A stretch of DNA of 48,199 nucleotides, taken from IMG/VR virus record IMGVR_UViG_3300030376_002412, positions 1 to 48,199 of that record; one strand, written 5' to 3'. This document shows, one piece after another, positions 10,246 through 48,199 of this stretch (its first letter is position 1; each line of letters opens with the position of its first letter). The notes below the pieces were generated by a model. The model had not been told where the DNA came from and did no database searches. It was given only the letters and a program-made list of their open reading frames with translations. Origin of the DNA: a virus (lineage: Duplodnaviria; Caudoviricetes). The translations under genes were made by a program, and so were the position numbers.

Positions 10246-10259
10246 TTTTATTCTCCTTC

Positions 10260-13113: not shown

Positions 13114-13150
13114 TGATAAGCGTGACTATAATTTCAAGCCACGCCTATCA
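13114..13150 (-). other. 14-bp RNA hairpin upstream of an RBS
   Basis: Minus strand TGATAGGCGTGGCT-9nt-AGTCACGCTTATCA, fully paired with two G-U pairs; no U-tract. Confidence 0.65.
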
Positions 13151-13214
13151 GATGCATAATTATCTCATTGTTTCCTCCTATATTATTCTTATTTCATTAA
13201 GAATAGAGGTACAA

Positions 13215-13475
13215 TTATCTATGCATCTCGTCTTCATAGAAGGAAGGTTCCACGAATTCTTGTTTATCGCTACTGCCAATAATGTTGCCAATATCGTCAA
13301 TTGTGTCTACCTTCCATTTTCCATGTTGATGTGCTTGTTTTGTAAAGTGCGCTTTTAAGTGACTGATTTCTCTTTTAGAGTCATCACAACAAGGTTCAAA
13401 GATATTTAACTCTCTTGTTGTTACGTCACTATTTGCAACTGGTACTCTACAATGTTGACATATCATTTTTAACAT
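13215..13475 (-). CDS. Hypothetical protein with CQHC/CC motifs
   Basis: Operon packing. Confidence 0.65.
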   Translation of the reverse strand: MLKMICQHCRVPVANSDVTTRELNIFEPCCDDSKREISHLKAHFTKQAHQHGKWKVDTIDDIGNIIGSSDKQEFVEPSFYEDEMHR

Positions 13476-13477
13476 AA

Positions 13478-13690
13478 CTATCCCTTCACGACATTATAAT
13501 ATATCGCCCACATATATTTTAACGTCATTCTACTTGTTACTGCTAACTTCGCTTCATCAAAAGCCTCGCTGGTATTCAAAGTGCTAAGATTTACCTTGTA
13601 TCTATCTTTGAACCATTTGCGAAACTTTTGTGAATGTGCTAACTTGGTAAAGTATAAATGTTCTTTTGGTGAATACAATTCACGCATCAA
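13478..13690 (-). CDS. Hypothetical protein
   Basis: GAGG RBS; coupled to the upstream gene. Confidence 0.65.
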   Translation of the reverse strand: MMRELYSPKEHLYFTKLAHSQKFRKWFKDRYKVNLSTLNTSEAFDEAKLAVTSRMTLKYMWAIYYNVVKG

Positions 13691-13878
13691 GATACCTCTA
13701 TCTTTACCTTTCTATTCTTAGCCTGGACATTGACTAAGGTTATTTGCATATCATAATACTCTGATATGTTTTCTGATATATGTCCTTCTTTGACATAATC
13801 ATCTACTGGTTTTAATTCTACATCATCATCTACTTTTGATTCTTCGATAATAATGTCGAATGCGGTGTCATTTGTCAT
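13687..13878 (-). CDS. Hypothetical acidic protein (63 aa)
   Basis: Operon packing. Confidence 0.6.
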   Translation of the reverse strand: MTNDTAFDIIIEESKVDDDVELKPVDDYVKEGHISENISEYYDMQITLVNVQAKNRKVKIEVS

Positions 13879-13957
13879 CGTCTTGCGCAGCTTTCATTTC
13901 ATTAAACCATACGCTTACGAAGACAATGATTGCACCAATAATTAACATCGTTTTCAT
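13868..13957 (-). CDS. Tiny membrane protein (29 aa, MKTMLIIGAIIVFVSVWFNE...)
   Basis: GGGAG RBS; single hydrophobic stretch; absent from the track. Confidence 0.55.
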   Translation of the reverse strand: MKTMLIIGAIIVFVSVWFNEMKAAQDDDK

Positions 13958-14129
13958 GTTAACGCTCCCTTCTTGTGTTAAAGTGTAGCCAACCATCGCA
14001 ACATTCATATGTGTATTGATATACTAACTGATATGAAGATATCGAGAGGTTGTTACGATGATTGGCATATTGTGATCTTAGTGAATAATGCATACACTTA
14101 CAAGTGCTTTTTTGTAAGGTATTATAGTA

Positions 14130-14173
14130 TAACGCTAACACGACACACGTATAGTGCATCAATGATAGCGTTA
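14130..14173 (-). other. Long interrupted RNA hairpin just after the first early gene
   Basis: TAACGCTA/TAGCGTTA outer stem with inner GATGCAC/GTGTGTC (G-U pairs on the minus strand). Confidence 0.55.
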
Positions 14174-14183
14174 GTTCAGACAA

Positions 14184-14546
14184 TTAGAGTTCATCTGGAT
14201 AGACGAATACTGCAACGGTCTTAGAGCCCTTGCGAGCACCTTTCGTCTGAACTAAGGGTTGCCACTCTGGTTCGAGAACATCCATATCACACAAGTTGGC
14301 GTACTCGGTGAATGTCGATAAGAACTCTATGTCCTTGAACGATTGCTCCTTGTCGATACTCATCACGAAGCGTAAGCCAACTGGTGGGTTCTTCGGGTCT
14401 GAATTAAAGGTGGCATCAAACGCGTCAAGGTTCTTCAAGAGTACACGGGTACCGCTTTGAGTTTTATCTTGCTTGCAATACGTGTATGCACCAACGATAG
14501 AACCTTTATGCTGTTTGAGTTTATTGATTAAAGTTACTTTGTTCAT
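14184..14546 (-). CDS. First gene of the early arm, hypothetical (120 aa), GC-rich relative to the genome
   Basis: AAGGAG RBS; 31/60 G+C in both 14221-14280 and 14341-14400. Confidence 0.8.
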   Translation of the reverse strand: MNKVTLINKLKQHKGSIVGAYTYCKQDKTQSGTRVLLKNLDAFDATFNSDPKNPPVGLRFVMSIDKEQSFKDIEFLSTFTEYANLCDMDVLEPEWQPLVQTKGARKGSKTVAVFVYPDEL

Positions 14547-14617: not shown

Positions 14618-14700
14618 CTACCGAAACGTTAATCGATTGGATTAATATCTCAGATTAAATTTCAACAAAACTATGAGATTAATTCAACGATTAACGGTAG
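14618..14700. repeat. Long imperfect inverted repeat at the divergence point
   Basis: Left arm CTACC(GAAAC)GTTAATCG(A)TTGGATTAAT(AT)CTCA at 14618-14652; right arm TGAGATTAATTCAACGATTAACGGTAG at 14674-14700. Confidence 0.7.
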
Positions 14701-14752
14701 GTAGGTGGTATATATACCTCGTACACGCAATCTAGAGCAATTTTTTAAAGTA

Positions 14753-14782
14753 TTGTAAGTAATTCATTTTTATTCATAAGTT
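14753..14782 (+). promoter_or_regulatory. Putative rightward (late-arm) promoter
   Basis: TTGTAA-N18-TAAGTT, same architecture as 17625-17654; ATG follows at 14788. Confidence 0.5.
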
Positions 14783-15089: not shown

Positions 15090-15309
15090 GGCAATAAAGA
15101 AAAAAAGCAAACCTACGCTAAAAGAGATGATGGCTATTATGGGAAAGATGATGATTCATATAGAAACATTAAAAGCAGATATTACCAATAATGCTAGAGT
15201 CGTAGATGAATACATACAGTTCAATGAAGATAAGGATGATTTTGTTCAGTACTTAAAAGAAAAACTAGATATAGATGATAAAGATAAAAAAGAAACTGAA
15301 AAAAAATAG
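15088..15309 (+). CDS. Hypothetical protein (73 aa)
   Basis: AAGGAG RBS. Confidence 0.75.
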   Translation: MAIKKKSKPTLKEMMAIMGKMMIHIETLKADITNNARVVDEYIQFNEDKDDFVQYLKEKLDIDDKDKKETEKK

Positions 15310-16051
15310 TTTTAAACCTGTAGAGTATTCTGTATGGGAAGAAAAGGAAGCTACGGATCTTTCTTATAAACATTGGCAAAAATGCGAAGAAGGCGACCTA
15401 GGTATTAGTGATGACGGCTTTGTAAGTGAATGTTTATATAAAAAGAAGTATAAGAACGGAACAGAGATGACGTTTCCCTATGGTAGACAATGGTTGGGAC
15501 ATAATAGACGTTTAGAGTTTAAACCGCACTGGAGAACTAAGAACTTTAATACAGTGTCTACTAAACCTTATACGGAGATAGAAGCTAAAAGTAAACGTGC
15601 AGAACTAGCAGTGGATAGCTATTTGGCTTACAAAATGGCAGGAGAATCGCCAAACCTAGAAGTAATTGGTAAGTTGTATAGGCCTGACCAAGATAAACCC
15701 GAGATCGCTGCAAAAAGATTATTAAAGTCTAAAGAGGTAAAAAAGATGATTCAAAAGAAATTACAAGAAGTGTTAACTGAAAAAGAAATAGACGAAGGAT
15801 ATGTGTTAGATGTAATGAAAGATGCTATACTAGTAGCTAAGATGAAAGAAAATAGTGGCGATATGATTCGTGCTGCTAAAGAGTTATCAGTATTTTTAGA
15901 TATGGCACCACACAAACAACAAGTAACAGAATCGTTAGAGATGGATATAAGCCATCAAATTTCTAATCAGTTTGAAACACAGAAGAAGAAATTAAAAGCA
16001 ACACAAAAGAAAGAGCTTCCAAGTGGAGAAACGGATAGTACTGAAAGGTAA
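15275..16051 (+). CDS. terS: Terminase small subunit (putative, with N-terminal extension)
   Basis: AAKRLLKSKEVKKMIQ and DMIRAAKELS motifs; directly upstream of TerL. Confidence 0.65.
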   Translation: MIKIKKKLKKNSFKPVEYSVWEEKEATDLSYKHWQKCEEGDLGISDDGFVSECLYKKKYKNGTEMTFPYGRQWLGHNRRLEFKPHWRTKNFNTVSTKPYTEIEAKSKRAELAVDSYLAYKMAGESPNLEVIGKLYRPDQDKPEIAAKRLLKSKEVKKMIQKKLQEVLTEKEIDEGYVLDVMKDAILVAKMKENSGDMIRAAKELSVFLDMAPHKQQVTESLEMDISHQISNQFETQKKKLKATQKKELPSGETDSTER

Positions 16052-16128
16052 AGAAAAAAATTTGTTAGTATTTTTAGCTACGTTAATACAAGTAGCTGCA
16101 GATATGGACTTAGATGTAACTATTATAA

Positions 16129-17619
16129 TTGATGAATAAAGACGACTTACTATTAGAAATGCAACAGGATATGTTATTATTCGGCCGAATGGTTATGCCG
16201 AATATGTTTAGCAGTGAATCTCCTCCGTTTCATTACGATCTTACAGATCAATTACTAGACACAGAATCTAAACAGATAAATATTATAGCACCACGTGGAC
16301 ACGCTAAGAGTTCAGTGGCTGCTGGTATTTTTCCTTTGTTTCATTTGATGTTTACAGAAGGCGTAAAAGTAATTGTACTTGTGTCTAGAACTCAATCACA
16401 CGCTACCAAGTTATTAGGAACCATAAAAGATGTGCTTGACTATTCTCAAGAATTTCGATACTTCTTTGGGTATTGGGGAATGCAGTCTGCTAAGAAGTGG
16501 ACTAATACAGAAGTAGAGTTAAAAGATGGTAGTTTGATTATTTGTAAAGGTACAGGGCAACAGATACGTGGTATTAAGCATGGTAATCAACGACCAACAT
16601 TATTAATATTAGATGATCCAGAAGATGAAAATAATACTAAAACCGCAGAAGCTATGGAATATAATTTACGTTGGCTTTTGCAATCTGGTGTTCCATCCCT
16701 TGACCCGTTATCTGGTAGAATATGTGTTATTGGTACTCCGCAGCATGAACGTTGTATGGTGGAAACCTTGAAAGAAATGAAAGGTTGGAACACATTAGAG
16801 TTTAGACCTGACTTAGAAAAAGGTGTAGCACTATGGGATGAAGTGTGGCCAATAGATAAATTAAAACAAAAAAAAGCAGAACTAGAAAGTATTAATAGAC
16901 TATCTGTATTTTATAGAGAATATCTATGTCAAATAGTTGGAGATGAAGATGCACTGTTTAGACAAGAGTATATTCAGAACTATGACGGCTATATCGAAAA
17001 GAATGAACAAGGATTGTCAACTCTCATCCTGACGAACCTAAATGGTGAGGAAGTAGAAGAGAGGCGACCTGTAAACATTTTTACAGGAGTCGATCCTGCA
17101 TCTAGTACAAGAAAAACAGCAGACTATTCTGTGATATTTAATATTGCAGTAGATGAAGAAGGCAATAGATTTTGTTTGCCCTATTATAGAAAAAGAGCAA
17201 CGCCTTTAGATTTAGCAGATGCTATTATAAATAATTTTAAAACATACAGAAGTACCAAGACAAGAATTGAGTCTGTTGGTTATCAGGAAATGCTAAGACA
17301 ATACATTAAAGAAAAAGCAGAAGAAATGGGTATGTTTATACCTGGTCTTGAAATAAAAGAAAATCCTAGAACAAGCAAGTCTTATAGATTGGAGAGTTTG
17401 CAACCTTTGTTTGCTAGTAATAAAGTATACATACAACCTACTATGCAAAACTTTATAGATGAGTTGTTATTGTATCCTAGAGGTAAACACGATGACTTGT
17501 TAGATGGATTTTTTTATGCTAATAAAAATTGCTATAAACCTTTACACGAATCAAGCTTTACAGCTAAAAAAGACAAGTTATTTGGGTTATTGACGAGAAA
17601 AAGCTGGAAAACTCTATAA
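16129..17619 (+). CDS. terL: Terminase large subunit
   Basis: Walker A APRGHAKS, Walker B LILDDPE, coupling motif IGTP, RNase H-like GVDPA and HDDLLD. Confidence 0.95.
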   Translation: MMNKDDLLLEMQQDMLLFGRMVMPNMFSSESPPFHYDLTDQLLDTESKQINIIAPRGHAKSSVAAGIFPLFHLMFTEGVKVIVLVSRTQSHATKLLGTIKDVLDYSQEFRYFFGYWGMQSAKKWTNTEVELKDGSLIICKGTGQQIRGIKHGNQRPTLLILDDPEDENNTKTAEAMEYNLRWLLQSGVPSLDPLSGRICVIGTPQHERCMVETLKEMKGWNTLEFRPDLEKGVALWDEVWPIDKLKQKKAELESINRLSVFYREYLCQIVGDEDALFRQEYIQNYDGYIEKNEQGLSTLILTNLNGEEVEERRPVNIFTGVDPASSTRKTADYSVIFNIAVDEEGNRFCLPYYRKRATPLDLADAIINNFKTYRSTKTRIESVGYQEMLRQYIKEKAEEMGMFIPGLEIKENPRTSKSYRLESLQPLFASNKVYIQPTMQNFIDELLLYPRGKHDDLLDGFFYANKNCYKPLHESSFTAKKDKLFGLLTRKSWKTL

Positions 17620-17624
17620 TGTTC

Positions 17625-17654
17625 TTGACTTTTATTGAAATATTCTTATAAGTT
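17625..17654 (+). promoter_or_regulatory. Putative promoter for the head module
   Basis: TTGACT-N18-TAAGTT in the gap after terL. Confidence 0.55.
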
Positions 17655-17666
17655 AATAAAGAGGTT

Positions 17667-17813
17667 ATGCGTATAGATATAAATAAATATCGATTTGATT
17701 TAGATCAATTCGATAAAATCTTACATAAAACAACAAAGATTCAAATACCAAAAGGGTACAAGGTTATAAATGCCAGAACAAATAAAGAAAAGAACAAAAG
17801 CGTCAAGAAGTAA
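17667..17813 (+). CDS. Small basic hypothetical protein (48 aa, MRIDINKYRFDL...)
   Basis: GAGG RBS; overlaps the portal start; absent from the track. Confidence 0.55.
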   Translation: MRIDINKYRFDLDQFDKILHKTTKIQIPKGYKVINARTNKEKNKSVKK

Positions 17814-20121
17814 TTTAGACGATAAATTGTCTGATGTATTTGGTTTTGAAAAAGGCGAGGTACAGTATGAAGATGGAGAAATCCATGAAGAAGTACAAGA
17901 ATCTTTAGAGTTGTTAAATGAATACGATAACTCTCGTGAAGCTTGGGCTGTAAAATTCCAAGAGTCTTTAGAGTTTAGAGCGGGTGCTCAATGGACAAAT
18001 GATGAACGTGAAGTATTGGAATCACGTGGTCAAGCACCTATTGTTGTAAACAGAATCCATCCTATTGTTGAAACCGCAAAATCTTTACTTACGTATAACT
18101 CACCTCAATTTCGTTCAACAGCAAGAGAAGATTCCGATAGAGATACAGCCAAAGTTTTTTCTGATTTGTTTTCATGGGTTTGGGACCAATCATCAGGAGA
18201 TGAAGAATTAAAAAAAGTTATTGACGACTATTATGTTGGCGGTATGGGAGTAATGAATGTTTATCAAGATCCCGATGCTGATATGGGTAAAGGAGAAGTT
18301 TATATTAAAGGTGTTAATCCTTTAGATGTTTACATAGATCCTAACGCAAAAGATGTTTATGCTAGAGATGCTGCTAATATTTTAGTTGTAAAATACATTA
18401 CAGACGAACAAGCTATGCAAGTATATCCCGAGTATATGGATATTATTTTAGATGCAGAAAGTGCTGTAGATGGCGATGAAGATTATCCTGAAACAGATTT
18501 ATCTGCTACAGAAGGTCAAATATTTAGCACAGACGAAACAACCACTTATCACAGTAAAAGAAAGTATATTGAAAAATATACAAAAGAAATGCATCAATAC
18601 TATAATGTTTATGAAACTTTTTCTAGAAAAGAATTATTGTTTAATAAAGACGAATATGAAGAATATTTAAAAAGAAGATATATAAAACTATCTAAAATTA
18701 CAGGTGAAGAAATTATTATTTTTGATGAAGTTGCAATGGATGAACTTTATAACATACTACAAACAGTAGGACAAGTATTTCATTTTACTTTACCTGAACC
18801 AGAATTTGACGATCAAGGAAATATTATACCACAAGAACCTAAAAAAGTTCCAGGACCAGAAGATAAAGATGGAATACCAGGGAGTACTACCTCTATTATA
18901 CCTATTACCGCAGAAGAATTAATAGGTATGGAAAAAATAGAGTCTATAGTTATTGATAAATGTTGTGTTAAACAATGTGTAACAGTAGGAAATAATTTAT
19001 TATATACTAGAATATTACCAATTGAAGATTATCCTATTATACCAATAATGAATATACACCATAGAAATCCTTATCCTGAGTCTGATGTAAGATTATACAG
19101 ACCATTGCAAGAGTACATTAACAAAATTCGTTCTTTAATTATTGCTCATGCAAGTACAAGTACAAATGTTAAATTATTGATTCCTCGTGGTTCAGCAGAC
19201 CTCCGACAAATTGAGGAGGAGTGGAGTAAAGCGGGGACTAGCGTTATTGAGTTTGATGCTGAGCTTGGTGCACCTATCGTAGCTGGTCCCGTACCACTTC
19301 CAAATGAGTTATATAAAAATGAAGCTGATGCTAAATATGACTTAGAGTATGGATTTGGTATTTTTGAATTAATGCAAGGAAGCGGAATGAATGCTCCTTC
19401 TACCTATAGAGGAACATTAGTTGTAGACGAGTTTGGTCAAAGACGTATTAAATCCAGAAGAGATGACGTAGAAAACTTTTTAAATCAAGTAGGTAAAGTT
19501 GCTGTACCTTTAATGCAACAAATGTATACAGAAGAAAAAGTTGTGCGACTAGTACAACCTAATGGTACAGAAAAAGAAGAAAGATTTAACTTTTTTAAAG
19601 AAAGTGAAACAGGAGATGTTAAAATGTTTCACGATGTAGCTGTAGGCAGATACGATATTAAAGTAGTTGCTGGTTCTACATTACCTACAAACAGAATGGC
19701 ATTATTAAATACTTATATGCAAATGTTCCAAATGGGTTTAATAGACCAAGCAGAAGTATTGAAGAAGTCAGAAATTATAGATATAGATGGTGTACTAGAG
19801 CGTTCAGGACAAATGAAACAACTAGCACAACAACTACAAATGACACAAGAAGAATTGAAGAAGGTCAAAGGCGACCTACAAACTGCTATGCGTGAAGAGC
19901 TTCATGCTAAGAAACGTTTAGAAGTAGAAAAATTTAGTGGCGATTTAGATAAGATATCTAATCGTGCTGAAGCTGCTACCGAGATGTATAAATCAAGGAT
20001 AGCGGATAGTGAAAAAAATCTGATGAACTCAGTGAAGCAAGTATCTAAAGAACAAATGCAAGGAGAAGAACAAGATTCACCTTCTGCTGCAATTGAGGCA
20101 CTTGAAGAAATTGAGAGTTAG
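17770..20121 (+). CDS. Portal protein, P22-like with C-terminal coiled coil
   Basis: GAQW...RGQAPIVVNRIHPIVE and LQEYINKIRS motifs; position after terL. Confidence 0.9.
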   Translation: MPEQIKKRTKASRSNLDDKLSDVFGFEKGEVQYEDGEIHEEVQESLELLNEYDNSREAWAVKFQESLEFRAGAQWTNDEREVLESRGQAPIVVNRIHPIVETAKSLLTYNSPQFRSTAREDSDRDTAKVFSDLFSWVWDQSSGDEELKKVIDDYYVGGMGVMNVYQDPDADMGKGEVYIKGVNPLDVYIDPNAKDVYARDAANILVVKYITDEQAMQVYPEYMDIILDAESAVDGDEDYPETDLSATEGQIFSTDETTTYHSKRKYIEKYTKEMHQYYNVYETFSRKELLFNKDEYEEYLKRRYIKLSKITGEEIIIFDEVAMDELYNILQTVGQVFHFTLPEPEFDDQGNIIPQEPKKVPGPEDKDGIPGSTTSIIPITAEELIGMEKIESIVIDKCCVKQCVTVGNNLLYTRILPIEDYPIIPIMNIHHRNPYPESDVRLYRPLQEYINKIRSLIIAHASTSTNVKLLIPRGSADLRQIEEEWSKAGTSVIEFDAELGAPIVAGPVPLPNELYKNEADAKYDLEYGFGIFELMQGSGMNAPSTYRGTLVVDEFGQRRIKSRRDDVENFLNQVGKVAVPLMQQMYTEEKVVRLVQPNGTEKEERFNFFKESETGDVKMFHDVAVGRYDIKVVAGSTLPTNRMALLNTYMQMFQMGLIDQAEVLKKSEIIDIDGVLERSGQMKQLAQQLQMTQEELKKVKGDLQTAMREELHAKKRLEVEKFSGDLDKISNRAEAATEMYKSRIADSEKNLMNSVKQVSKEQMQGEEQDSPSAAIEALEEIES

Positions 20122-20139
20122 AGAAAGGTAAAACATACT

Positions 20140-21024
20140 ATGAATAATGAAGAGATAACGAATACAGATCCACTATTAGCAAATCAGGGAACTGCCCCTG
20201 CATCTGCTGAAGATGATAATATCTTTAACGAGATATTTGGTGAACAAGAAGTGAGTAAATACGTTGCACCTATTGAGCCAAAACAAGATGAAGGTAACCT
20301 ATCAGAAGGAACCGTAGGCGTGAATCCTAAGGAAGATCCTAATCAATTTCAGTACTGGCAAAGCCAAGCTGATAAAAAAGATGCAGAACTACAAGAGTTA
20401 AAAGCTAGAATGGATAAAGTGGAGCAATCAGCACCACCTGTACAATCTGCTGCTCCAGTAGAAACGCAACCAGAGCCTATTCAGGAAACAGTACAAAAAC
20501 CTGTTAAACCTGCTAGACCAACCGATTTTGATTCTTCCGAAGCACTAACTGATCCAAATAGTAAGTCTGCGAAGTATGTTGCAGCAAGGGACCAGTATTT
20601 AGAAGAAATAACTGAATACAATGAACTTCAGGTATCTAACCAACAACAGTTAGCAAAACAACAACAGCAACAAGCTGTACAAGCAGCAAATCAAGCTAAG
20701 TTGATTAATGAATTGCAAGCTAAATATAGTTACACACCAGAAGAAGCTAATGATTTTATTGTAAAAATGTCTTCACCAGAGTCATTGTCCTTAGACAATT
20801 TAGTAAAACTGCATAGAGGCGACCAACAGCAGGGACAACCTGTAACGAGTCCATCTACAGCAGATTTGCAATTAGAAGTGATGAGACAACGCAAAGAAAA
20901 ATTAGCAATCCCTAAACCTATTACGACACAGCCGAGTGCTAACGTGCAGTCATCTAGAAAAATAGAAGATCAAATGATGGATTCCATGATTGGAAGTTTC
21001 AAGAAAAAGAATCCATTTAGTTAA
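20140..21024 (+). CDS. Capsid scaffolding protein (putative)
   Basis: Acidic/Pro/Gln-rich with coiled coil; between portal and capsid. Confidence 0.7.
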   Translation: MNNEEITNTDPLLANQGTAPASAEDDNIFNEIFGEQEVSKYVAPIEPKQDEGNLSEGTVGVNPKEDPNQFQYWQSQADKKDAELQELKARMDKVEQSAPPVQSAAPVETQPEPIQETVQKPVKPARPTDFDSSEALTDPNSKSAKYVAARDQYLEEITEYNELQVSNQQQLAKQQQQQAVQAANQAKLINELQAKYSYTPEEANDFIVKMSSPESLSLDNLVKLHRGDQQQGQPVTSPSTADLQLEVMRQRKEKLAIPKPITTQPSANVQSSRKIEDQMMDSMIGSFKKKNPFS

Positions 21025-21047
21025 AAACCTAAAAGGAGAGAGGCAAG

Positions 21048-22499
21048 ATGGCTAATCAATATAGTATCACACCTGGTGTGACTTTAGATGGTGCAAACGG
21101 AAGCGCTAGCTCTATTAATGATTCAAGAAGAATCTTTAATTTTGGAGAAAGAGTTGCTGAATTAGCACCGCAAACATCACCTTTTCTAACATATCTGGCT
21201 AGAGTCGGTAAGAAAGCTACAGACGATCCTGTGTTTAAGTTCTTAGAACAAAGACATCAGTATCAAAGACGTAACTTCCAATGTGCTCAGGCTAAAGATA
21301 TAACTAATTATGGTTCAGGAAACTGGGCTGTAACTGGTTTAAGACTGGATGCACCTTATGACCAGTTTGGTAGAGAAGTTGATACAAGTGTAAGACCTGA
21401 ATTTTTAATTGTAGGTCAAATAATCGCTATAGAAGGCGAATGGGATGAAGACGGAGTTGATGGTTCTGATAAACCAGTTATTGCATATTTCAGGGTGACA
21501 GCTGTAGATAACGCAAGTGCTGATTATTCAGTAATTTCAGGTACATTCATCAAAGCAATATTAAAACCAACACATTCTGCTAATGGAGCAGACGCTGCAA
21601 CTAAGGGCTTAGTAGCTCCTGGAGCAGACGATCACTTACGTTTAGATGATAACGTTAAAGGTCAAGTAGTTGGTTCAGCATACGCTGAGGGTCACGATGG
21701 TGACACTTTAGAAGGATGGAAAGATGAGTTCTATTCAAGAGAGGGTTATACTCAAATCTTTAAGACTCTTGTTCCATTATTCTCAGGTACAGCGTTAGCT
21801 ACACGTTATCGTGGAGTAGCAAACGAATATATGAGAGTTTATCAAGAAAAACTTATGGAACATAAGATGGATCTTGAACACGCTTTCTTATTCGGTATGG
21901 GTACTGACGATAGCACAGCAAGTGGACCATTACGTAGAACATGGGGTATCTTACCATATACAGAAGCATACGGAAAAGTTAAAACTTTTTCATACGGTTC
22001 AGCAACTTACGATTCATTCGTAGATGCAATGGAAGATGTATTCTCACCAGAATCTGGAAACAGTGGAGAGAAACTTGTTCTGTGTTCAAGAAAAGTTATG
22101 TCCTTCTTTAATAAATTAGGAGGTAACTCATTCTTAGGTAATATGATGGCTCAACAAGTAGACAGTCAAAGAGTTTATGCTGGTGGTTCTGGATTTGATA
22201 TTCAGAATGTACAGAATGAATTTGGTATGAATGTAACTAGAATTTCTACTATTTATGGTGGAATTAACTTAGTTATGGAACCACTATTCAGAAATCAGCA
22301 TGAAAACACTGCTATTATGATTGATCTAAACAACGTTGCTTACAGACCGTTAGAAGGTAATGGCGTATCAAGAGATACTCAAATTATCACTAACATCCAA
22401 GGCGATGGTGTTGATGGAAGAAAAGACATGATTCTTACAGAAGCAGGTCTTGAAATTTCATTACCAGAAACACACACTGTGTTACAATTTGTAGCATAA
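21048..22499 (+). CDS. Major capsid protein, HK97 fold (SU10/DUF5309-like)
   Basis: SPFLTYL, YTQIFK, EHKMDLEHAFLFG, TIYGGINLV, ILTEAGLE; strong RBS; downstream hairpin. Confidence 0.88.
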   Translation: MANQYSITPGVTLDGANGSASSINDSRRIFNFGERVAELAPQTSPFLTYLARVGKKATDDPVFKFLEQRHQYQRRNFQCAQAKDITNYGSGNWAVTGLRLDAPYDQFGREVDTSVRPEFLIVGQIIAIEGEWDEDGVDGSDKPVIAYFRVTAVDNASADYSVISGTFIKAILKPTHSANGADAATKGLVAPGADDHLRLDDNVKGQVVGSAYAEGHDGDTLEGWKDEFYSREGYTQIFKTLVPLFSGTALATRYRGVANEYMRVYQEKLMEHKMDLEHAFLFGMGTDDSTASGPLRRTWGILPYTEAYGKVKTFSYGSATYDSFVDAMEDVFSPESGNSGEKLVLCSRKVMSFFNKLGGNSFLGNMMAQQVDSQRVYAGGSGFDIQNVQNEFGMNVTRISTIYGGINLVMEPLFRNQHENTAIMIDLNNVAYRPLEGNGVSRDTQIITNIQGDGVDGRKDMILTEAGLEISLPETHTVLQFVA

Positions 22500-39592: not shown

Positions 39593-40279
39593 ATGAATAT
39601 TAATTCAAAGTTAAGCGTTTATCAGGCACAAGCAGGAGCTGAAGTATCTGTAGATAAAGCAGAAGCTGATTCAGAATACAGAGATAGTTTATTAGGTAAA
39701 ACAATGTATTATGGAACTGCAGCTATGTCTGGATATACTATGGGTAACGAATTAGCAAAAACTATGCAACCCATGATAGACAATATGAAAGTTAGAAGAC
39801 AAGCAAGAAAAGATTATACTAGTAACGTTAAAATGTTTGATGGCGTACAAGTACAAGAAAGATTTGATAGTTTTAGAGATTTTTATAAACAAACAGTTAA
39901 AGAACCAGCTAAACAAGCTATGGTAGGAACTGGTCCTGTAGGAAGAATTTCTGATACAGATGGAACTACAATTATGAAACCAGGAGAAAGGACTTCTAGT
40001 AGAGCAGCAGACAAAGCTACGGTTAAAGCTTTTTATTTAAATTCCGTAACTAACTACGAGCCTACTGGTGAAAAAGATGCAGATGGTAATATGTCTTATA
40101 TGCAAACAACTACACCTCAACACGCATCTAGGTTTTTTCCTAAACCTCAAATGACACCTTTTTTTGATTATCAAAATAATCCAAACTTATTAAGTGCTTT
40201 GACTAAACCTATAACTCAAGAAGAATATGATGAAGCTGAAGAAAATAGTAGATTTATTGGTGAATCAATTTCAATGTAA
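39593..40279 (+). CDS. Hypothetical, probable internal virion protein
   Basis: AAGGAG RBS; position between tail and ejection genes. Confidence 0.6.
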   Translation: MNINSKLSVYQAQAGAEVSVDKAEADSEYRDSLLGKTMYYGTAAMSGYTMGNELAKTMQPMIDNMKVRRQARKDYTSNVKMFDGVQVQERFDSFRDFYKQTVKEPAKQAMVGTGPVGRISDTDGTTIMKPGERTSSRAADKATVKAFYLNSVTNYEPTGEKDADGNMSYMQTTTPQHASRFFPKPQMTPFFDYQNNPNLLSALTKPITQEEYDEAEENSRFIGESISM

Positions 40280-40289
40280 GGAAAATAAT

Positions 40290-40775
40290 ATGAATGAATT
40301 TGAAAAAAAAGTATACGATCATATGAAACTTCGTGAAGGATATAAGAACGAAGTATATTTAGATACGTTAGATAAACCTACTTGCGGTATTGGTCATTTA
40401 TTAACTGCAGCAGAACGTGAAGATTATCCTGTAGGCACTGAAGTAGATGATTATAAAATTAAAGAATGGTATATGGAAGATATTACTACTGCTATGGAAG
40501 CAGCAGATAAGCAAGCAAGCATACTATCTACAGATAATGAATCTGTGAAAATAGCGTTAGTTTCAGTAAATTACCAATTAGGTACTAGCTGGACTAGAAA
40601 GTTTCCTACTGCTTGGAAATGTTTATGTCATCAGGAGTATGATCGTGCTATAGATGAAATAATGTATGCAGATAAAAAAGCAGATAGATATTCACGTTGG
40701 TATAAACAAACACCAGTTCGTGTAGAAGATTTTGTAAAAGCAATTAATAAATTAAAGGAGATACATAATGGCTAA
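40290..40775 (+). CDS. T4-type lysozyme (GH24)
   Basis: EG...YLDTLDKPTCGIGH (E-x8-D-x5-T) and SRWYKQTPVR; likely start 40290. Confidence 0.88.
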   Translation: MNEFEKKVYDHMKLREGYKNEVYLDTLDKPTCGIGHLLTAAEREDYPVGTEVDDYKIKEWYMEDITTAMEAADKQASILSTDNESVKIALVSVNYQLGTSWTRKFPTAWKCLCHQEYDRAIDEIMYADKKADRYSRWYKQTPVRVEDFVKAINKLKEIHNG

Positions 40776-40947: not shown

Positions 40948-41436
40948 ATGTCGTTTGCAATAGTAGCAGGATTAATTGGAGCAGCAGCCACTACCTCAGC
41001 TGCGAGCAAAGCAAGAGAAGAGGGTAGAAGAAGACGTGGTGTTTTAAAAAGTGTGTTTGGAGATTTACAAAGCAATGCTATTGGTTTATTACCAGCAGTA
41101 CAAGAAAATGAAATACAACGACTTGAAACTCAAGGGGATAGATTTGATTTAGCTACAGATTCTAGAATAAATCAATACAATGCATTAGAAAATAAAATGG
41201 GACAAACAGGTTTTGCAGGATTAGGTACAAATGTTATGGACCCTACAAAAGCATTCACAGGATTAGACTTAGCATATCAAGCTTCTAATCGACAAATACA
41301 AGAACAAAAAGGTATGGAGTTAGACGCAATACAAAAAACTTACTACAACGCTGCATCGCAAGCTGCACAAGGTGGTGCTGTATTGTCTACAGATTTTAAT
41401 CAAGCAGTTAAAGACCAATATGGAGGGAACGTATAA
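40948..41436 (+). CDS. Small ejection (internal virion) protein, putative
   Basis: N-terminal MSFAIVAGLIGAAATT; first of a small/medium/giant triad. Confidence 0.6.
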   Translation: MSFAIVAGLIGAAATTSAASKAREEGRRRRGVLKSVFGDLQSNAIGLLPAVQENEIQRLETQGDRFDLATDSRINQYNALENKMGQTGFAGLGTNVMDPTKAFTGLDLAYQASNRQIQEQKGMELDAIQKTYYNAASQAAQGGAVLSTDFNQAVKDQYGGNV

Positions 41437-42977
41437 TGGCTAGTTATGAAACTGAATTTTTGCAAGCATTAAACATGGCATCACAAAGTGCTACTGGATT
41501 ACTTAAATCTATTAGGGAACCAGATTATGAAACAAAACTTGCATTAGAAACGCAAAAAAGAAAAGAACTAATGGCACTAGAACAAGACTATGCTATGGAA
41601 AGATTAGATACAACAGGAGAGCAGAAAATAGAGGAATTAGGAATTACTACTGGATCTGCAGAAGATATTGCTGGAATGAAGATTGCTTCTGATCAAACAA
41701 TTACCGATAAAAACATACAAGCTGATAAAGAAAATTTAGCTACAAGCATTGCAGGTAATTTAGATTTAGCTAATAAAAATAATCAAGCAATGTTCGAACG
41801 TTTAGAACTTACTACAGATACTCAAAAAGATATGCAATTGATACAAATTGGTGCTAATAAAGAGAGTCAAGAATCTTCTCAAGCTTTTGAGAAAATGATG
41901 CAAGACGATCGACAAGAGTTTAAGTTTGGTTTTCAAGAAAAAGAAAATAATTTTACATTAAGTAGAGATTTAACTTTGCATGGATATGCTTTAAAACAAA
42001 TGGAAAAAGGGCATTCTTATGATATTGATTTGTCTAATAATAATCACACTAATAAAATAGCACAAATGCGAGAACAAAAAGTAATATCACAAGATATGCA
42101 AATTTTTATGACTACAGAATTACCAAAATATCAAAGACAAAATGCAGAAGAACAACAAAAGTGGTTAGGCGAAAAAATAAAATGGTATAAAAATGGTAAT
42201 GGTACTGGCGCTTTTGAAATGAAAACAAGAGCTGAAGTATATATGTTAGCGCAAAATAAATTAGGACAAGCACAAGCAGAAGATAATTTTAATTGGCAAA
42301 AAGGAAAAGGTTTTGACAATTTTATAGCTAGTGGTACTAACGGATTTATTACTATGAGCGGTACTGGTATGCAAATGAAACAAGATATTCAAAATCAAAA
42401 ATATCAACAAAGAGCGTTTGATTTTAACTCAAATTTAGCAGATCAACAGTTTAATATAAATTTAGGTCAAAGACTTACAACAGATGCAATGTTTAACAAT
42501 GTAAGCGATGGAACTAAAAATTCTATAATGACTGCTGTAAATGGACAATCTGGTTTATACGGCAATTTAAATTTAGACAATCCAGCTAATCATAAAGCTG
42601 TACATGAATATCAAAGTTTTCAAGCAGAATCTGCTATAGGAGCTTTGAATTTACGTATGGATGATTTTAATATGCCAGATCAACCTAGTACTTTATTTAG
42701 AGGTAAAAAAGCACACAAACAATATCTTACGCAAGGTACTAATACTTACAATGACTTATCTGCAAATCTTTTAAAACGTTCTGAAATGTTAGCTGGAATT
42801 GGATTAGACAATGCTAGCAAGACTTATAAAAAAGAACTTAAACAAGATTTGTTAAAAGGAATTAAGCTTGGAGATCGTTTAATCAGTTCATCTACGAAAG
42901 TAGGGGGAGAAGAAGGTTTAATAACTGGATTAAAAGAAAGAAGAGAAATACTACAAGCATACTACGACCAGTTATAA
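41436..42977 (+). CDS. Medium ejection protein, helical and Gln-rich, putative
   Basis: Coupled between the small ejection gene and the giant gene. Confidence 0.6.
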   Translation: MASYETEFLQALNMASQSATGLLKSIREPDYETKLALETQKRKELMALEQDYAMERLDTTGEQKIEELGITTGSAEDIAGMKIASDQTITDKNIQADKENLATSIAGNLDLANKNNQAMFERLELTTDTQKDMQLIQIGANKESQESSQAFEKMMQDDRQEFKFGFQEKENNFTLSRDLTLHGYALKQMEKGHSYDIDLSNNNHTNKIAQMREQKVISQDMQIFMTTELPKYQRQNAEEQQKWLGEKIKWYKNGNGTGAFEMKTRAEVYMLAQNKLGQAQAEDNFNWQKGKGFDNFIASGTNGFITMSGTGMQMKQDIQNQKYQQRAFDFNSNLADQQFNINLGQRLTTDAMFNNVSDGTKNSIMTAVNGQSGLYGNLNLDNPANHKAVHEYQSFQAESAIGALNLRMDDFNMPDQPSTLFRGKKAHKQYLTQGTNTYNDLSANLLKRSEMLAGIGLDNASKTYKKELKQDLLKGIKLGDRLISSSTKVGGEEGLITGLKERREILQAYYDQL

Positions 42978-42978: not shown

Positions 42979-45900
42979 ATGGGATTAGATAGAAGAATAC
43001 AGATACTTGAGTCTGCTTTCAATGCAGGTCAATTAGATGAAATGCAGTATGCATTAGGTCTAAAAAAGTTTTATGACCGTATACCTAAGCAATTTGACGC
43101 ACGTAGTTTGCGTTATATGGAATCAAAACTAGTTGATGCAGGCTTACCCCTTACTGATGGAAGACAAGGTCAAACTGACGGAGTTCTTGCACAGATTACA
43201 TCTGGACTATTAGAAGGTTTTACAACCTTTGGTTTTGCAGATGAACCTGATACGTCTACCGAAAAAATAGCAAACTCATTATCTCATCTTGTAGGACTAG
43301 CACCAGGTGTTGTAGTACAAGCATTATCTGGAGGTGGTGCTGCAACAGCATTAGTAGCTAGAGGAATGCGTAGACAAGCTAAAGCTAGAGGCGTTAAGCA
43401 ATTTGAAGCAGTAGCTGATCGTTTAGAAAGCGTAGGAGAATCTTTACAATACTCTAACAATAAAGTAGCAAGAGCTATGCACGATGTTACTACCAAACTA
43501 CCTGGAGGTAAAGCATTACGTAGTCCACAACCTATTGGCGTAGATATTAAAACAGGTGAAAAATTATACGGTATGCAGTCTGTACCTGGTATAGTTGCTA
43601 ACTTTGTACAAAAACAAAGTACAAGTTTTTTAAAAGACAATAATATTAAAGCAGCAGAATTTATACACAAAGGTGTATTTAAAAATAGATTCATGGATGC
43701 TGCTACTCGTGACAACATTGTTAATCAATCTGTACACTTAGGATTATTGTTAGGTGCTTCTGCTAGAGAACAAGGCTTAGCAGGTATGGGACAAGCAGCA
43801 GTACAAGGTGCTATTGCAGGGGGTATATTTGGAGGTATAGGTGAATATGCAAACATAGGTAGAATGTTAGCTAGTAAAAATGTTGGAATTAGAACTGCTG
43901 GAGAGAAAGTAGTTAGAGGATTTGCTAAAGCATTAAAAGAACAACCTAATCGTAGAGATCAATTTGAAACTATAAACTTTCTCATGAAAGGTACAGCAGG
44001 TGCAGCGTATGGTACTACTACTGCTAAACTGCACGATATGCCTTTAGAAGACCAAATATATGAAACATTAATGGCTGTGTTCTTTAGTGTAAATAGTAGA
44101 GCTGCATTTGAAAATAGAGCTACTAGAGATATATTTAGTTCTGACAAAGTGATACCTAGAGATTTTAAAATGAAGGAAGCACGTAAATGGATTACTGAAC
44201 AACCGTGGTATCAAGCAGAAACTCCTGAATATCAAGCATACTGGAGCAGGTATTTAAAAGACATACAACGTCAACAAATGGATTATGTTGTTAATAACTA
44301 CAATGATATTATTGTAGCATTAGCTCCTGAGTATAGAGATTTAAAAGAACAGGGTTTCATTACACCTGAAATGGAAACAAGAGCTAGAACAGATAATAAA
44401 ACCAGAGAAACTATATTAGAAAAATTATATGAAGCAGCTGAAAAAGCAGAAAGAAAACACGAAGATACTTTTAATATAGATGAAGTAGAACGTAGAGTAG
44501 AAGAAAAAGAATTTGAATTTAGTTCTATGGAAATGGACAAAGAAGTTAAACACATAGAACAAGATACATCTATTGCTAGTGAATATTTACCAAAACAACG
44601 TACACTAAAAAACATATTTGTAGATATTAAAAAAGTTGGTGACAAAACTTCTAAAGATTTAGATCCACAAGAGTTGCATCAAATGTTTAAGAAGTTAGCT
44701 ATTGATACAAACTTTACTCCTGATAATTTTATTAAAGAAGTAGAAGGTAAATTTAAAATTAAAGTTAGCGAAGAACAGAAAATGGATTTGGTTCAAGCTA
44801 TACATAAATATAAACATTTAGATAAGTTTAAAATATCTAGAATATATTTAGTACCAGAAGAGGGTAAGGGCAGATTAAAAAGACGTAAAACAGAAGAGCC
44901 CGTATTTGAGGAAGAAGCACCAGAAGTAGACATATACAACAAACCTATAGGCGGTAAAAAGTCGGGTACTAAATCAGACCAAGGTAGTCGTTTAAATAAA
45001 ATATATGCTAAAGATGATAAACAATTACATTTGGATATAGACTATTTAACTACTGTAGTATCACAACGATATTATGATGCAGTAGAAGGTAAATATAAAC
45101 CAGGTGCTAAAATTAAAAATGTGTCACCTTTGTCTATAGATATATTTGCATTTTCTAAAGATACTAAAGATCCTATCAGTGCTGTAAGAAATATGTCTAA
45201 AAAACAATTAGACCAATTAAGAAATAATTTAGAAGAGAAAGAAGGGCTGTATATACACGCAGCAGTTAGTGACACTGGTAGATTGCAAGTAAGACAATTC
45301 CCTTGGAGCAGTAGAAAGAATGAAACTAATTATATATCTGACAAAGAATTAAAAAAAATAGATAGAACTATTAGAAAAGAATTAGGCGGCACTGATGCTA
45401 AAAAATATAAATCTAATGTTGGATTTGTTATTTGGCGTATGAAAGAAATGAATTTAATAGATGCTAAATACACAGCACAAGACATTATAGATACATTGCC
45501 TACTTATTTTAAAACAGAACCTTATACTGATGTTACAAAAATGCAAAAGTATACTAAGCATATGTCTGGTATTGAAGTACCTATAGATAATCAATACATT
45601 AAAGATGAATATACACACGCTTTGATAAAAGATTTACCTGGTAGTATTAAAAATATGGGGCCTGAAATGGAAGCATTTAACTCAGGTACTGATGGTGCTA
45701 GTATGTTACGAGGTGAAAAATTTGACAGATTAGCAAAAGCGTATGGATTAGATCCTGAAACTGGTGTTATAAAAACTATACATATACACAGACCTGGTGA
45801 GTTTACTAACGGGAATAAACGTGGTACAACTATTATTAAAACTGCTACATTTAGAATGGACCCTAAGTGGGAAGCTTTGTTAGATAGAACAGAAGCAGGT

Positions 45901-48199
45901 AAAAAAATAGATTACTTACATTATGATACTGCAGTAAAAGAAATTAGTGGAGCAAAAAGACCAGACGTACCAGGTAAAACAGACGTTACATGGAAATCTA
46001 AACTAGAAGATAATTACATAAATTTAGATGTCTATGAGAATTTTAATAAATTAGAAAAATTAAAATTGTTAAGACAGGTTACCTCTAATTTGAATACTAT
46101 TGACATGGATCCTACTAGCACAGATGGAAAGATTTTTTGGAATAAATGGCAAGAAATTATAGATGCATCTGCAAGAGGAGATGCTGTTGTAAGCAAAGAA
46201 GTAAGTCAGCTGCTTAAGTCTAATCAACCTTTAGGCGATAAAGTATCTTTAGATAAAATAGATATTAGATTAATAGACCAGATATTAAATGAAAACCCTA
46301 CGTCTATTACAGCCAGAAGTATATTACGTAAGTTGTTTACTGATGGCAGAAGTTCTGAACGTGATAAAAGAATAGAACAAGACTTTGCAGAATATGGTAA
46401 TGAAACATATAACAAACAGTTAATAGAAGACTATTTAATTTCTACAGATTTTGAACCAGGAGCATTTTTAAGACCAGGTGTTATAGAGTTTATAAACGAA
46501 AAAATATCAGACTATGCTTTTAAAAGATTAACTAGACCTGTAGTAGAAGAATCTTTTAGTTCTAAGTTAGGTTTGTATGATGTAATTATACGAACTACAA
46601 ACTTTAAATACTCTTCTGCTAAAAAAGGTTTAGCTGATAATGAATTTTTATTACATGAAGGTGCACGTATTATTCCTGTTACCGATCCTACTACTCAAAA
46701 GAAAAGTACATTAGGTAAAGTATTTGATAAGTTTGAAAAAGAATATGACTTAGATAAAAACAGTGACACTACTAAACAATTAAAAGAAACATTAGACAAT
46801 GTTATGTATATACGTTCTCCAATGGTTAGTAACAGTGGTGTTCGTATTGGTAATTTTGTAGGATTTGTTAAAGGTAGAAAGGGTATATCTATTATAACTA
46901 ACGAAGTTAACGACTTTAATATGAACGGAGCAGACAAAGACATTGACTCGGCTCATGTATTTTGGGGTATGCCTAAAGAAATAACTAAGGTATATGCTAG
47001 ACCTGAAATACAAAATCAATTATTAAAAGAAGATGGAACTATGATTTCTTTAAGCGATGCTAAAATTGCTAAAGAGTTAGCTAATGCTAAGTTTCCACAA
47101 AAAGAAACAAGAAAGCAGCAGTTAGCTAATATGATTGACATAGATGCTAAGCTTGGTAATGGATTGTTTAGTGCAATTGGTAAAGACAGTGTAGGATATA
47201 TTACTAATCAATTTCAAATAGCTAAACAAGAATTTGATTTAAGAAAACAATTAATGATAGAAGACGGAAGCGGTAAGGTTACCGAGATGCAAACAAATGA
47301 ATTACCTAAAATTTGGAAACAATTAATTATAGATCAAAATGTTTTACAAAGTACATTTATAGATGCTAATAAATTAGTTGATGTTGACTTACCTTCTACT
47401 GCTACAGCTAAGCTAAGAGGAAAATATAAAGACAATTTATTAGAAGCAGAAGATCGTATTGTATTGCGTGATATGTATAAACTTGTATTTAGTAAAGTAC
47501 GTAAAGACGAAGCTCCATTAGAACCTAACGTAGTATCTCAAAAATATTTAGATATGACTGAAGGTACTACTGGTTATTTGAGAATGGTTGGTGAAAATAT
47601 TAATGGATTAAAATTAGAAATTAATCCTTACAATGCAATTGACAAAGATGCTATTATTCCTGTATTAAAAGATTTGTCTAAGGTTATGAAGGATCATCCT
47701 TTATTTAAAAAAGCAAACTTAAGAGAGTTTGACAAATGGTTTATGGAAGGTATTGATGGAAAAGAAATGAATACCATTAAAGATTATCCTCCTTTTTTAT
47801 GGAATAAAATTAATGGTATTGTAGACTTGTCTAATGCTTTGAAAAAAGCACAAGCGTTTAAAGAGTATGCTGTAGAGGTATTAGAAATGAACCCTAGTGC
47901 TGTTGATAAGTTTATTGTAGACGTAATAGAAACTACATTTGAACAACGTAATAAAATTTATCAATCATTTGATAATAATAAACAGTGGTATAAAAAACAA
48001 AACGTTAGAAGCTACGGAGATCAAATATACTTTACTAAAGAATCTATAAAAGAACAGTTAGAAACATTAACTACAGCTAGAAATGCAGTAGGAAAACCTT
48101 TGACTAAACAAGGTAAGATGTTAGTAGAAGATTTATTTGATGTATTTTATATAGCTAATCCTGTTATAGATTTAAACTTTACAGGATTTAGAGGAAAAA
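42979..48199 (+). CDS. Giant virion protein containing a two-barrel DNA-dependent RNA polymerase (N-terminal part; continues at 372..4984; ~3277 aa total)
   Basis: ATG 42979 (MGLDRRIQILE...), no stop seen to the window end. NSGTDGAS (TDG 45688-96), GVIKT, IIKT, IDYLHYDTAVK (~45907-39), YIRSP (RSP 46813-21), NGADKDIDS (DKDID 46933-47). Confidence 0.85.
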   Translation, partial: MGLDRRIQILESAFNAGQLDEMQYALGLKKFYDRIPKQFDARSLRYMESKLVDAGLPLTDGRQGQTDGVLAQITSGLLEGFTTFGFADEPDTSTEKIANSLSHLVGLAPGVVVQALSGGGAATALVARGMRRQAKARGVKQFEAVADRLESVGESLQYSNNKVARAMHDVTTKLPGGKALRSPQPIGVDIKTGEKLYGMQSVPGIVANFVQKQSTSFLKDNNIKAAEFIHKGVFKNRFMDAATRDNIVNQSVHLGLLLGASAREQGLAGMGQAAVQGAIAGGIFGGIGEYANIGRMLASKNVGIRTAGEKVVRGFAKALKEQPNRRDQFETINFLMKGTAGAAYGTTTAKLHDMPLEDQIYETLMAVFFSVNSRAAFENRATRDIFSSDKVIPRDFKMKEARKWITEQPWYQAETPEYQAYWSRYLKDIQRQQMDYVVNNYNDIIVALAPEYRDLKEQGFITPEMETRARTDNKTRETILEKLYEAAEKAERKHEDTFNIDEVERRVEEKEFEFSSMEMDKEVKHIEQDTSIASEYLPKQRTLKNIFVDIKKVGDKTSKDLDPQELHQMFKKLAIDTNFTPDNFIKEVEGKFKIKVSEEQKMDLVQAIHKYKHLDKFKISRIYLVPEEGKGRLKRRKTEEPVFEEEAPEVDIYNKPIGGKKSGTKSDQGSRLNKIYAKDDKQLHLDIDYLTTVVSQRYYDAVEGKYKPGAKIKNVSPLSIDIFAFSKDTKDPISAVRNMSKKQLDQLRNNLEEKEGLYIHAAVSDTGRLQVRQFPWSSRKNETNYISDKELKKIDRTIRKELGGTDAKKYKSNVGFVIWRMKEMNLIDAKYTAQDIIDTLPTYFKTEPYTDVTKMQKYTKHMSGIEVPIDNQYIKDEYTHALIKDLPGSIKNMGPEMEAFNSGTDGASMLRGEKFDRLAKAYGLDPETGVIKTIHIHRPGEFTNGNKRGTTIIKTATFRMDPKWEALLDRTEAGKKIDYLHYDTAVKEISGAKRPDVPGKTDVTWKSKLEDNYINLDVYENFNKLEKLKLLRQVTSNLNTIDMDPTSTDGKIFWNKWQEIIDASARGDAVVSKEVSQLLKSNQPLGDKVSLDKIDIRLIDQILNENPTSITARSILRKLFTDGRSSERDKRIEQDFAEYGNETYNKQLIEDYLISTDFEPGAFLRPGVIEFINEKISDYAFKRLTRPVVEESFSSKLGLYDVIIRTTNFKYSSAKKGLADNEFLLHEGARIIPVTDPTTQKKSTLGKVFDKFEKEYDLDKNSDTTKQLKETLDNVMYIRSPMVSNSGVRIGNFVGFVKGRKGISIITNEVNDFNMNGADKDIDSAHVFWGMPKEITKVYARPEIQNQLLKEDGTMISLSDAKIAKELANAKFPQKETRKQQLANMIDIDAKLGNGLFSAIGKDSVGYITNQFQIAKQEFDLRKQLMIEDGSGKVTEMQTNELPKIWKQLIIDQNVLQSTFIDANKLVDVDLPSTATAKLRGKYKDNLLEAEDRIVLRDMYKLVFSKVRKDEAPLEPNVVSQKYLDMTEGTTGYLRMVGENINGLKLEINPYNAIDKDAIIPVLKDLSKVMKDHPLFKKANLREFDKWFMEGIDGKEMNTIKDYPPFLWNKINGIVDLSNALKKAQAFKEYAVEVLEMNPSAVDKFIVDVIETTFEQRNKIYQSFDNNKQWYKKQNVRSYGDQIYFTKESIKEQLETLTTARNAVGKPLTKQGKMLVEDLFDVFYIANPVIDLNFTGFRGK
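47829..48199. repeat. Terminal direct repeat (copy 2)
   Basis: Copy of 1-371. Confidence 0.95.

Follow-up and report, generated by a model that had tools for sequence, protein, structure and literature searches.

A predicted crAss-type two-barrel RNA polymerase within a giant, probably virion-borne protein of a 48-kb podovirus-like phage

In the literature that we searched, single-chain two-barrel virion RNA polymerases (RNAPs) have been shown only for phi14:2, a Cellulophaga phage that is crAss-like, and the Thermus phage P23-45. In P23-45, the virion RNAP, gp96, is fused to the tape measure protein. The virion enzyme of phage N4 has a T7-type single-subunit core. A source on N4 describes this enzyme as a single-chain RNAP and places gp52 (150 amino acids, aa), gp51 (644 aa) and gp50 (~3500 aa) in a row (PMC13434306), and two reports on Schitoviridae describe cysteine suppression throughout the ejection operon, linked to passage through the periplasm (PMC11445570, PMC3715699). 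For phi14:2, it is reported that gp66 holds both barrels in one chain, requires all three of its aspartates, is packaged, and transcribes early genes without a common upstream motif (10.1101/2020.03.07.982082). The transcription block is treated within crAss-like phages in PMC7886860. Here, we describe a 3277-aa protein encoded by a virus of the Caudoviricetes (Duplodnaviria), IMG/VR record IMGVR_UViG_3300030376_002412. The stretch analysed, positions 1 to 48,199 of that record, is called the window. We predict, with little doubt, that the core of this protein is a two-barrel RNAP to which crAss-type cores are the closest known relatives. The overall explanation that we favor, and consider likely, is an injected, crAss-related two-barrel RNAP that would serve the early arm of the genome.

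The gene encoding this protein is divided between the two ends of the window. The frame that begins with the ATG at 42979 meets no stop in the 1740 codons before the window ends (42979-48198). Positions 1-371 repeat 47829-48199 with two mismatches (positions 4 and 370) that leave the translation the same, and across this overlap the frame carries on into 2..4984, making the TTG at position 11 an internal codon. Once the ends are joined, the gene is a single open reading frame (ORF) of 9834 nt. A first-pass annotation made from the letters of the sequence had proposed this joined ORF and had named an in-frame stop or a misassembly as what could overturn it. The frame is intact on translation, and an independent contig agrees: in IMG/VR locus L001, which is 99.9% identical, a single ORF of 3277 aa spans the junction. 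Closed ORFs of 3276-3406 aa occur in six more loci (L003, L004, L007, L009, L010 and L011) and, together with L001, rule out misassembly at the junction. The giant ORF is interrupted by contig ends in 4 of 11 IMG/VR loci.

The motifs that the first-pass annotation had listed are present in the translation where it placed them, namely TDG (904-906), the two spaced lysines of GVIKT (929) and IIKT (952), RSP (1279) and GADKDID (1317; D1319/D1321/D1323). Its D...TAVK motif (TAVK at 984) held in part: the TAVK lysine, K987, is conserved, whereas the aspartate just before it falls below 90% conservation. A phmmer search with aa 801-1500 against 1.84 billion representatives returned 44 hits, many of them 2600-3900 aa long. 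The pattern RxP-(30-46)-GxDxDxD is present in 41 of these, the other three being 43-267-aa fragments of the upstream part; DxDxD is thus conserved in homologues, as the annotation had expected of a polymerase. Of 2000 shuffled versions of the protein, 6 contained this pattern by chance.

A wider set of relatives came from an IMG/VR scan with the pattern GADxDxD (286 matches, 217 confirmed, 80 kept). The core alignment (A3) consists of 44 non-redundant sequences from 83 complete-core loci, with the window standing in for L001. Over the core, invariant positions (44/44) are D905, K932, K954, K987, G1067, R1279, P1281, G1295, G1302, G1317, A1318, D1319, D1321 and D1323. The first-barrel residues D905, K932, K954 and K987 lie outside the retrieval pattern and are still invariant, and both catalytic and first-barrel residues are kept in relatives down to ~16-25% identity. 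The window has DKDID; in the family, the variants include DKDAD (9), DKDSD (7), DKDID (6) and DKDGD (6), among others, and DFDID is found in 1 of 41.

Comparison of profiles connects this core to crAss-type polymerases. We aligned the family core profile by hhalign with a profile of 11 crAss-type cores (phi14:2 gp66 and 10 others). The catalytic segment matched with a probability of 73%, an E value of 3.1e-5 and a score of 53.4, compared to scores of at most 18.1 for 40 column-shuffled profiles and 17.3 for the reversed profile. In this alignment, the catalytic barrel is matched to gp66 R1322, P1324, G1345, G1359 and D1361/1363/1365. Of two weaker, colinear segments, one lies in the connector, and the other, over the first barrel, pairs D905, K932, K954 and K987 with gp66 residues that are near-invariant in the crAss set. 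Spacing agrees closely: the arginine and the aspartate are 40 aa apart in the family and 39 aa apart in crAss-type cores, the second glycine lies 23 aa past the arginine in both, and at least 11 invariant residues match in order and spacing across ~420 aa. The two-barrel interpretation offered in the first-pass annotation is supported in that the conserved RxP, DxDxD and Asp/Lys residues map in order onto crAss-type cores. By this likeness, the core would form two double-psi barrels, with D1319, D1321 and D1323 predicted to bind Mg.

Several observations weigh against this assignment. Significance in the profile comparison is confined to the catalytic segment, and the first-barrel segment reaches E 0.15 by itself. 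No meaningful Pfam, PHROG or PDB sequence match was found for the whole protein or for the core. The conservation of the aspartate triad in the core alignment is selected because the loci were retrieved by the GADxDxD pattern. At the second position of the motif, K is the usual residue instead of F, and the fourth position varies among A, S, I and G. In favor of the assignment, when single sequences were compared, the best alignments to phi14:2 gp66 and to P23-45 gp96 and gp64 fell on the RxP..DxDxD strand, all of them non-significant; that to YonO of SPbeta fell elsewhere. Also in its favor, a YonO profile, shallower at 6 sequences, gave E 0.05 and three colinear weak segments, one of which follows the DxDGD of YonO. 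In the ESM Atlas, unnamed viral clusters scored 0.94-0.95; the nearest named cluster, a viral PF05183 RNA-dependent RNA polymerase (RdRP) group, scored 0.83-0.84 and serves as a lead only.

The protein resembles phi14:2 gp66 in that a single chain carries both barrel signatures in the same order, with DKDID here compared to DFDID in gp66, and in both phages the RNAP gene ends a structural arm that converges on the replication arm. Beyond the core, however, no similarity was found to gp65, gp66, gp67, gp68 or gp69, and the three-protein block of phi14:2 contrasts with one 3277-aa chain here. The gp66 family has the form DFD[IV]D, its fourth residue being Ile or Val; the family of the window does not keep this form, and there is no profile similarity to the flanking zincin-domain partners gp65 and gp67. 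The 3277-aa protein contains no HExxH. P23-45 gp96 likewise has a two-barrel core inside a giant, cysteine-free virion protein, but it shows no significant sequence similarity to the protein described here. P23-45 has a long tail, its polymerase is N-terminal, and it encodes another RNAP that is non-virion, whereas here the core is central and the phage looks podovirus-like. YonO and PF05183 share the single-chain two-barrel layout but are ~840 aa, cysteine-rich and non-virion.

In the remainder of the chain, Pfam, PHROG and PDB sequence searches with the N- and C-terminal domains likewise returned no meaningful match. The C-terminal domain exceeds the catalytic core in conservation, with 30 invariant columns over 37 sequences, and 26 of the 37 members match phrog_11358, an unnamed PHROG of 3431 positions, weakly. 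Because phrog_11358 was not found in phi14:2, Fpv1, two crassviruses or P23-45 and was matched in 2 of 14 control genomes, we assign it no identity. Matches to SKN-1 and amphiphysin were rejected as matches of helical composition. Some relatives have insertions in or near the polymerase core, for example ~120 aa in L011 (~10086-10443); L074 has a match there to cpYpsA SLOG (E 5e-4), and L051 and L057 have one to the DprA-like phrog_768. Such extra inserted domains resemble those of polyvalent injected proteins.

The composition of the protein and the position of its gene suggest that it travels in the virion. It contains no cysteine, compared to ~20 expected from the 33 other proteins of the window (Poisson P 2e-9), and 76 of 77 distinct family ORFs also lack cysteine (1 Cys in 217,609 aa in total). 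For comparison, YonO has 14 Cys in 839 aa, gp66 has 2 in 2180 aa and P23-45 gp96 has 0 in 5002 aa. The one or two ORFs next upstream of the giant gene are cysteine-free in 12 of 13 related genomes; in the thirteenth, G014, the nearest upstream ORF has none and the next one has a single Cys. The giant gene is the last of the structural arm in all 13. It is preceded by an ORF of medium size and by a small one rich in Ala and Gly, as a rule separated by 0-16 nt, and the small ORF has a hydrophobic N-terminus in about half of these genomes. Taking PMC11445570 as a guide, we looked for the traits of a podophage ejection cassette (N4 gp52/51/50 and T7 gp14/15/16), namely a small, a medium and a giant gene in a row closing the virion arm and cysteine suppression, and observed both here. 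The likeness to N4 extends to lengths (150, 644 and ~3500 aa in N4; 162, 513 and 3277 aa here) and to cassette-wide cysteine suppression. N4 differs in that the core here appears to be of the two-barrel type; N4-like phages gave no sequence match, and N4 RNAP II-type genes were not found among the ORFs scanned.

By analogy with these cassettes, we consider it very likely that the 3277-aa protein is virion-borne and injected. Two points count against this. In PHROG, PDB and profile searches, neither the two terminal domains (N and C) nor the two ORFs upstream resembled any ejection protein that is known, and, with no such link by sequence, injection is inferred. In addition, the non-virion gp64 of P23-45 has no Cys in 616 aa, and the absence of cysteine is therefore no proof of injection. 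We propose that the protein is made late and packed into the capsid, that it would be injected through a channel predicted from the two cysteine-free upstream proteins, and that it would then transcribe the early arm, possibly from a conserved element at its head (14683-14758). The N-terminal region probably anchors the protein at the membrane or in the tunnel, and the C-terminal domain probably serves packaging or self-inhibition. Because no second RNAP gene was found among the ORFs scanned, the late genes, including the giant gene, would be read by the host RNAP.

Three other accounts of the protein can be weighed against this one. The DxDxD could be the metal-binding loop of another fold, with a convergent likeness to RNAPs. 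The non-significant single-sequence comparisons and an Atlas score below 0.9 would fit such convergence, which we regard as very improbable given that at least 11 invariant residues follow the crAss-type order and spacing and that the profile score is far above its controls. If the core is a two-barrel RNAP, it might instead be made during infection and remain unpackaged, transcribing middle or late genes in the manner of SPbeta YonO or P23-45 gp64. The three colinear weak segments of the YonO profile and the PF05183 group as nearest named Atlas cluster point in this direction, but YonO has only about a quarter of the size of this cysteine-free protein, whose gene adjoins the cysteine-free cassette genes and is last in the structural arm in 13/13 related genomes, making an unpackaged enzyme improbable. 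Transcription-coupled entry of DNA is known for T7, and an ejection protein might use a polymerase core mainly as a motor that pulls in the genome, or to make primers, rather than to express a defined set of early genes. Position in the cassette and cysteine suppression agree with such a role, as does the lack of a DNA polymerase among the 25-30 ORFs scanned. Nevertheless, the phage encodes a primase-helicase itself, one conserved element stands at the head of the early arm, and the bounds of that arm agree with those of the RNA contigs; we consider this account no more probable than an unpackaged enzyme. A motor role is compatible with the injected early-arm RNAP that we favor, and both can hold.

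The element heading the early arm has the consensus TTT-n-AAAAAT-n5-TAGAATG-n-gtGt...tAtAtAt...tacC over 65-75 nt. It was first spotted by eye and then aligned from 13 genomes. Leave-one-out nhmmer gave one strong match in each of 14/14 genomes (E 1e-4 to 7e-16), including G009, which lies outside the element alignment. The next-best matches had E 0.001 or weaker, the best of them overlapping the same place on the other strand, and four control phage loci gave no match below E 1. The element is always on the primase-helicase strand, opposite TerL and 1.4-2.5 kb before it; in the window it lies where the early (minus) and late arms diverge, near 14.7-15.1 kb. A sigma70 scan of 4900-16200 found 50 sites compared to 51.6 expected, none of which overlaps the element, and a repeat search found no repeated early promoter. 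In RNA libraries (three runs from two studies, examined over window 1-20000), contigs cover 5337-14674. Past 14674, the depth drops in the next bin from 18.9 to 1.1 in X15 and from 13.2 to 0 in X16, both from one study. This coverage is, at most, consistent with a start of transcription at the element. RNA contigs cannot give start, strand or level, DNA may be present in the libraries, and contig assembly may be interrupted by a hairpin at 14626-14700. The stretch 2002-5336 is empty in all three runs, and the nearly bare 3' half of the giant gene counts against the explanation that we favor. Runs X17, X19 and X20, with small shares, do not enter this coverage, and the raw-read run X21 placed only 4 reads.

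Whether the element is the promoter of the 3277-aa RNAP is a closely balanced question, and we place this possibility slightly below even. Alternatively, and about as likely, the element could mark where the terminase cuts or the genome ends, serve as an origin of replication, or be a promoter that an alternative sigma factor of the host uses; all of these concern the promoter step only. A single copy 1.4-2.5 kb ahead of TerL would suit these functions, and the element is better conserved than the RNAP core that it would have to match. The early transcripts of phi14:2 are reported to have no common upstream motif (10.1101/2020.03.07.982082), in contrast to the conserved element here. On the other hand, the element always points into the early arm and is overlapped by no sigma70-type site, RNA contigs begin just downstream of it in 2 runs of one study, and a report on P23-45 describes an AT-rich promoter motif used by its virion RNAP (10.1101/2022.12.01.518664).

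Other structured or repeated sequences were observed in this region and elsewhere in the early arm. The long hairpin at 14626-14700 is directly downstream of the element, and downstream stems differ widely among genomes, with a 130-nt minimum free energy of -18 to -62, calculated without a shuffle control. Palindromic repeats TTAACGTTAA / TAATTAATTA at 14940-15110, before the first late genes, are common to 5-6 genomes and may be a late regulatory site. An intergenic stretch at ~11120-11260 (minus strand) contains a GTCAC...GTGAC stem followed by a TCAGAATAGAGG...CCTCAGTTCTGA hairpin with a variable loop. This structure occurs in the window, G006, G007 and G008 (in two tandem copies), and G011 has the hairpin only; it has no Rfam match, and nothing in the Rfam search came near a gathering score. 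The coordinates of the features discussed are collected in Table 1.

Table 1. Features of the window, with positions in the 48,199-nt stretch
Feature	Position	Strand	Remarks
Giant gene, 5' part (aa 1-1740)	42979..48199	+	runs through the terminal overlap
Giant gene, 3' part (aa 1618-3277)	1..4984	+	stop at 4982-4984; first 371 nt duplicate the window end
Terminal overlap of 371 nt with window 1-371	47829..48199	.	circular map of ~47,828 bp
Gly/Ala-rich conserved N-terminal region (aa 1-400)	42979..44178	+	mildly hydrophobic helices; no family match; putative membrane or ejection role
Predicted first (beta-like) double-psi barrel	45526..45948	+	D905, K932, K954, K987 correspond to gp66 D962, K1012, K1027, K1065
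Predicted catalytic (beta-prime-like) barrel	46546..46968	+	R1279, P1281, G1295, G1302, G1317, D1319/1321/1323 invariant
C-terminal domain (aa ~2800-3277)	3548..4984	+	more conserved than any other part; matches phrog_11358 weakly
513-aa Cys-free Gln-rich ORF adjoining the giant gene	41436..42977	+	candidate periplasmic-tunnel ejection protein, by position only (N4 gp51/T7 gp15)
162-aa Cys-free Ala/Gly-rich ORF, hydrophobic N-terminus	40948..41436	+	candidate outer-membrane ejection protein, by position (N4 gp52/T7 gp14)
Phage lysozyme (PF00959) within the cassette	40227..40775	+	4 Cys
228-aa Cys-free ORF upstream of the lysozyme	39593..40279	+	possible further cargo
Single-copy conserved element heading the early arm	14683..14758	-	points into the early arm; candidate promoter
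Early/replication arm	5432..14546	-	small ORFs and primase-helicase (6016-7860); converges on the giant-gene end
Head/packaging module	15275..22499	+	probable TerS, TerL (16129-17619), portal (17770-20121), probable scaffold, capsid (21048-22499)

The phage belongs to a family of small genomes: the 11 records that are at least 90% complete span 43.6-53.7 kb, with a GC content of 31-34% and the same gene order. The first-pass annotation had called the portal P22-like, the capsid SU10-like and the genome about half the size of crAss-like genomes. Pfam matches agree with the first two (PF16510, E 5e-56; PF17236, E 1e-31), and the family range of 44-54 kb, compared to ~100 kb for phi14:2, agrees with the third. 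TerL, portal and capsid showed no significant similarity to those of phi14:2, the single reference phage used in these hhalign comparisons (E 0.05, 0.64 and 0.39, respectively), and neither did the tail profiles. The nearest GenBank matches of TerL and capsid are ~25% identical, and none of six capsid matches is from a crassvirus. The TerL, portal and capsid comparisons with phi14:2 support a lineage that would lie outside Crassvirales. Members of Crassvirales, which have Bacteroidota hosts, also differ in having genomes of ~90 kb or more and their own DNA polymerase, which was not found among the ORFs scanned here. Replication here (5432-15047) seems to rest on the primase-helicase and a few conserved small genes. 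No tRNAs were found.

The phage had no match among 50,697 GenBank phages (tblastn with four family queries), and no cultured member was found. A search of GTDB genomes for prophages or hosts confirmed none of 96 core candidates and none of 93 TerL candidates. Half or more of the words in window 8000-17900 occur in ten sequencing runs from nine studies. Eight of these studies are labelled marine or seawater metagenome; this habitat count leaves out possible source samples. To judge from the lysozyme and the cysteine-free cassette, the host is probably Gram-negative. As a rule, Bacteroidota have few Shine-Dalgarno-like words ahead of their genes. Such words precede 16 of 31 ORFs in the window, a count made without a control, which argues against a Bacteroidota host. 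Two further observations concern the related genomes. A metallophosphoesterase gene (34516-35283) is 80-94% identical in 10 relatives, making it as conserved as TerL, and precedes the tail genes in a position like that of g075 in phi14:2. G001 (L030 and L069; 89.8 kb) contains two TerL and two polymerase genes and is probably two phage genomes assembled together.

Conservation within the family is uneven. In G002-G005 and G009-G011, TerL is 77-81% identical to that of the window, compared to 24-29% for the RNAP core. A core that changes so much faster than TerL hints at pressure from the host on proteins that are injected, and this speed also explains why databases miss it. We found no description of the phage family in the literature searched. 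In the checked part of the PMC10770324 supplement, which did not extend to its 23 RNAP-family alignments, GADKD is absent and the RNAP table is without DKDID, DKDAD, DKDGD and DKDSD; DFDGD and DFDID, which served as controls, were both present.

Judged by sequence, this phage would combine the crAss-type mode of virion RNAP with an N4-style cassette and would belong to neither Crassvirales nor Schitoviridae. The fullest version of our proposal is a widespread family of 44-54 kb marine podophages that carry a crAss-type RNAP in an N4-style cassette and start their early arm from one non-sigma70 element; as a whole, we advance it tentatively and regard it as rather more doubtful than the promoter step alone. 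Such a family would add small marine podophages, whose head module is different, to the carriers of two-barrel virion RNAPs. It suggests that either polymerase fold, T7-type in N4 and two-barrel here, can be slotted into the ejection cassette. The element, which is kept while TerL identity falls from 90% to 36%, provides a direct in vitro template for the question of where such enzymes start, for which phi14:2 has offered no motif. If the promoter assignment is true, the element would be the first promoter to be defined for a virion polymerase of the crAss type.

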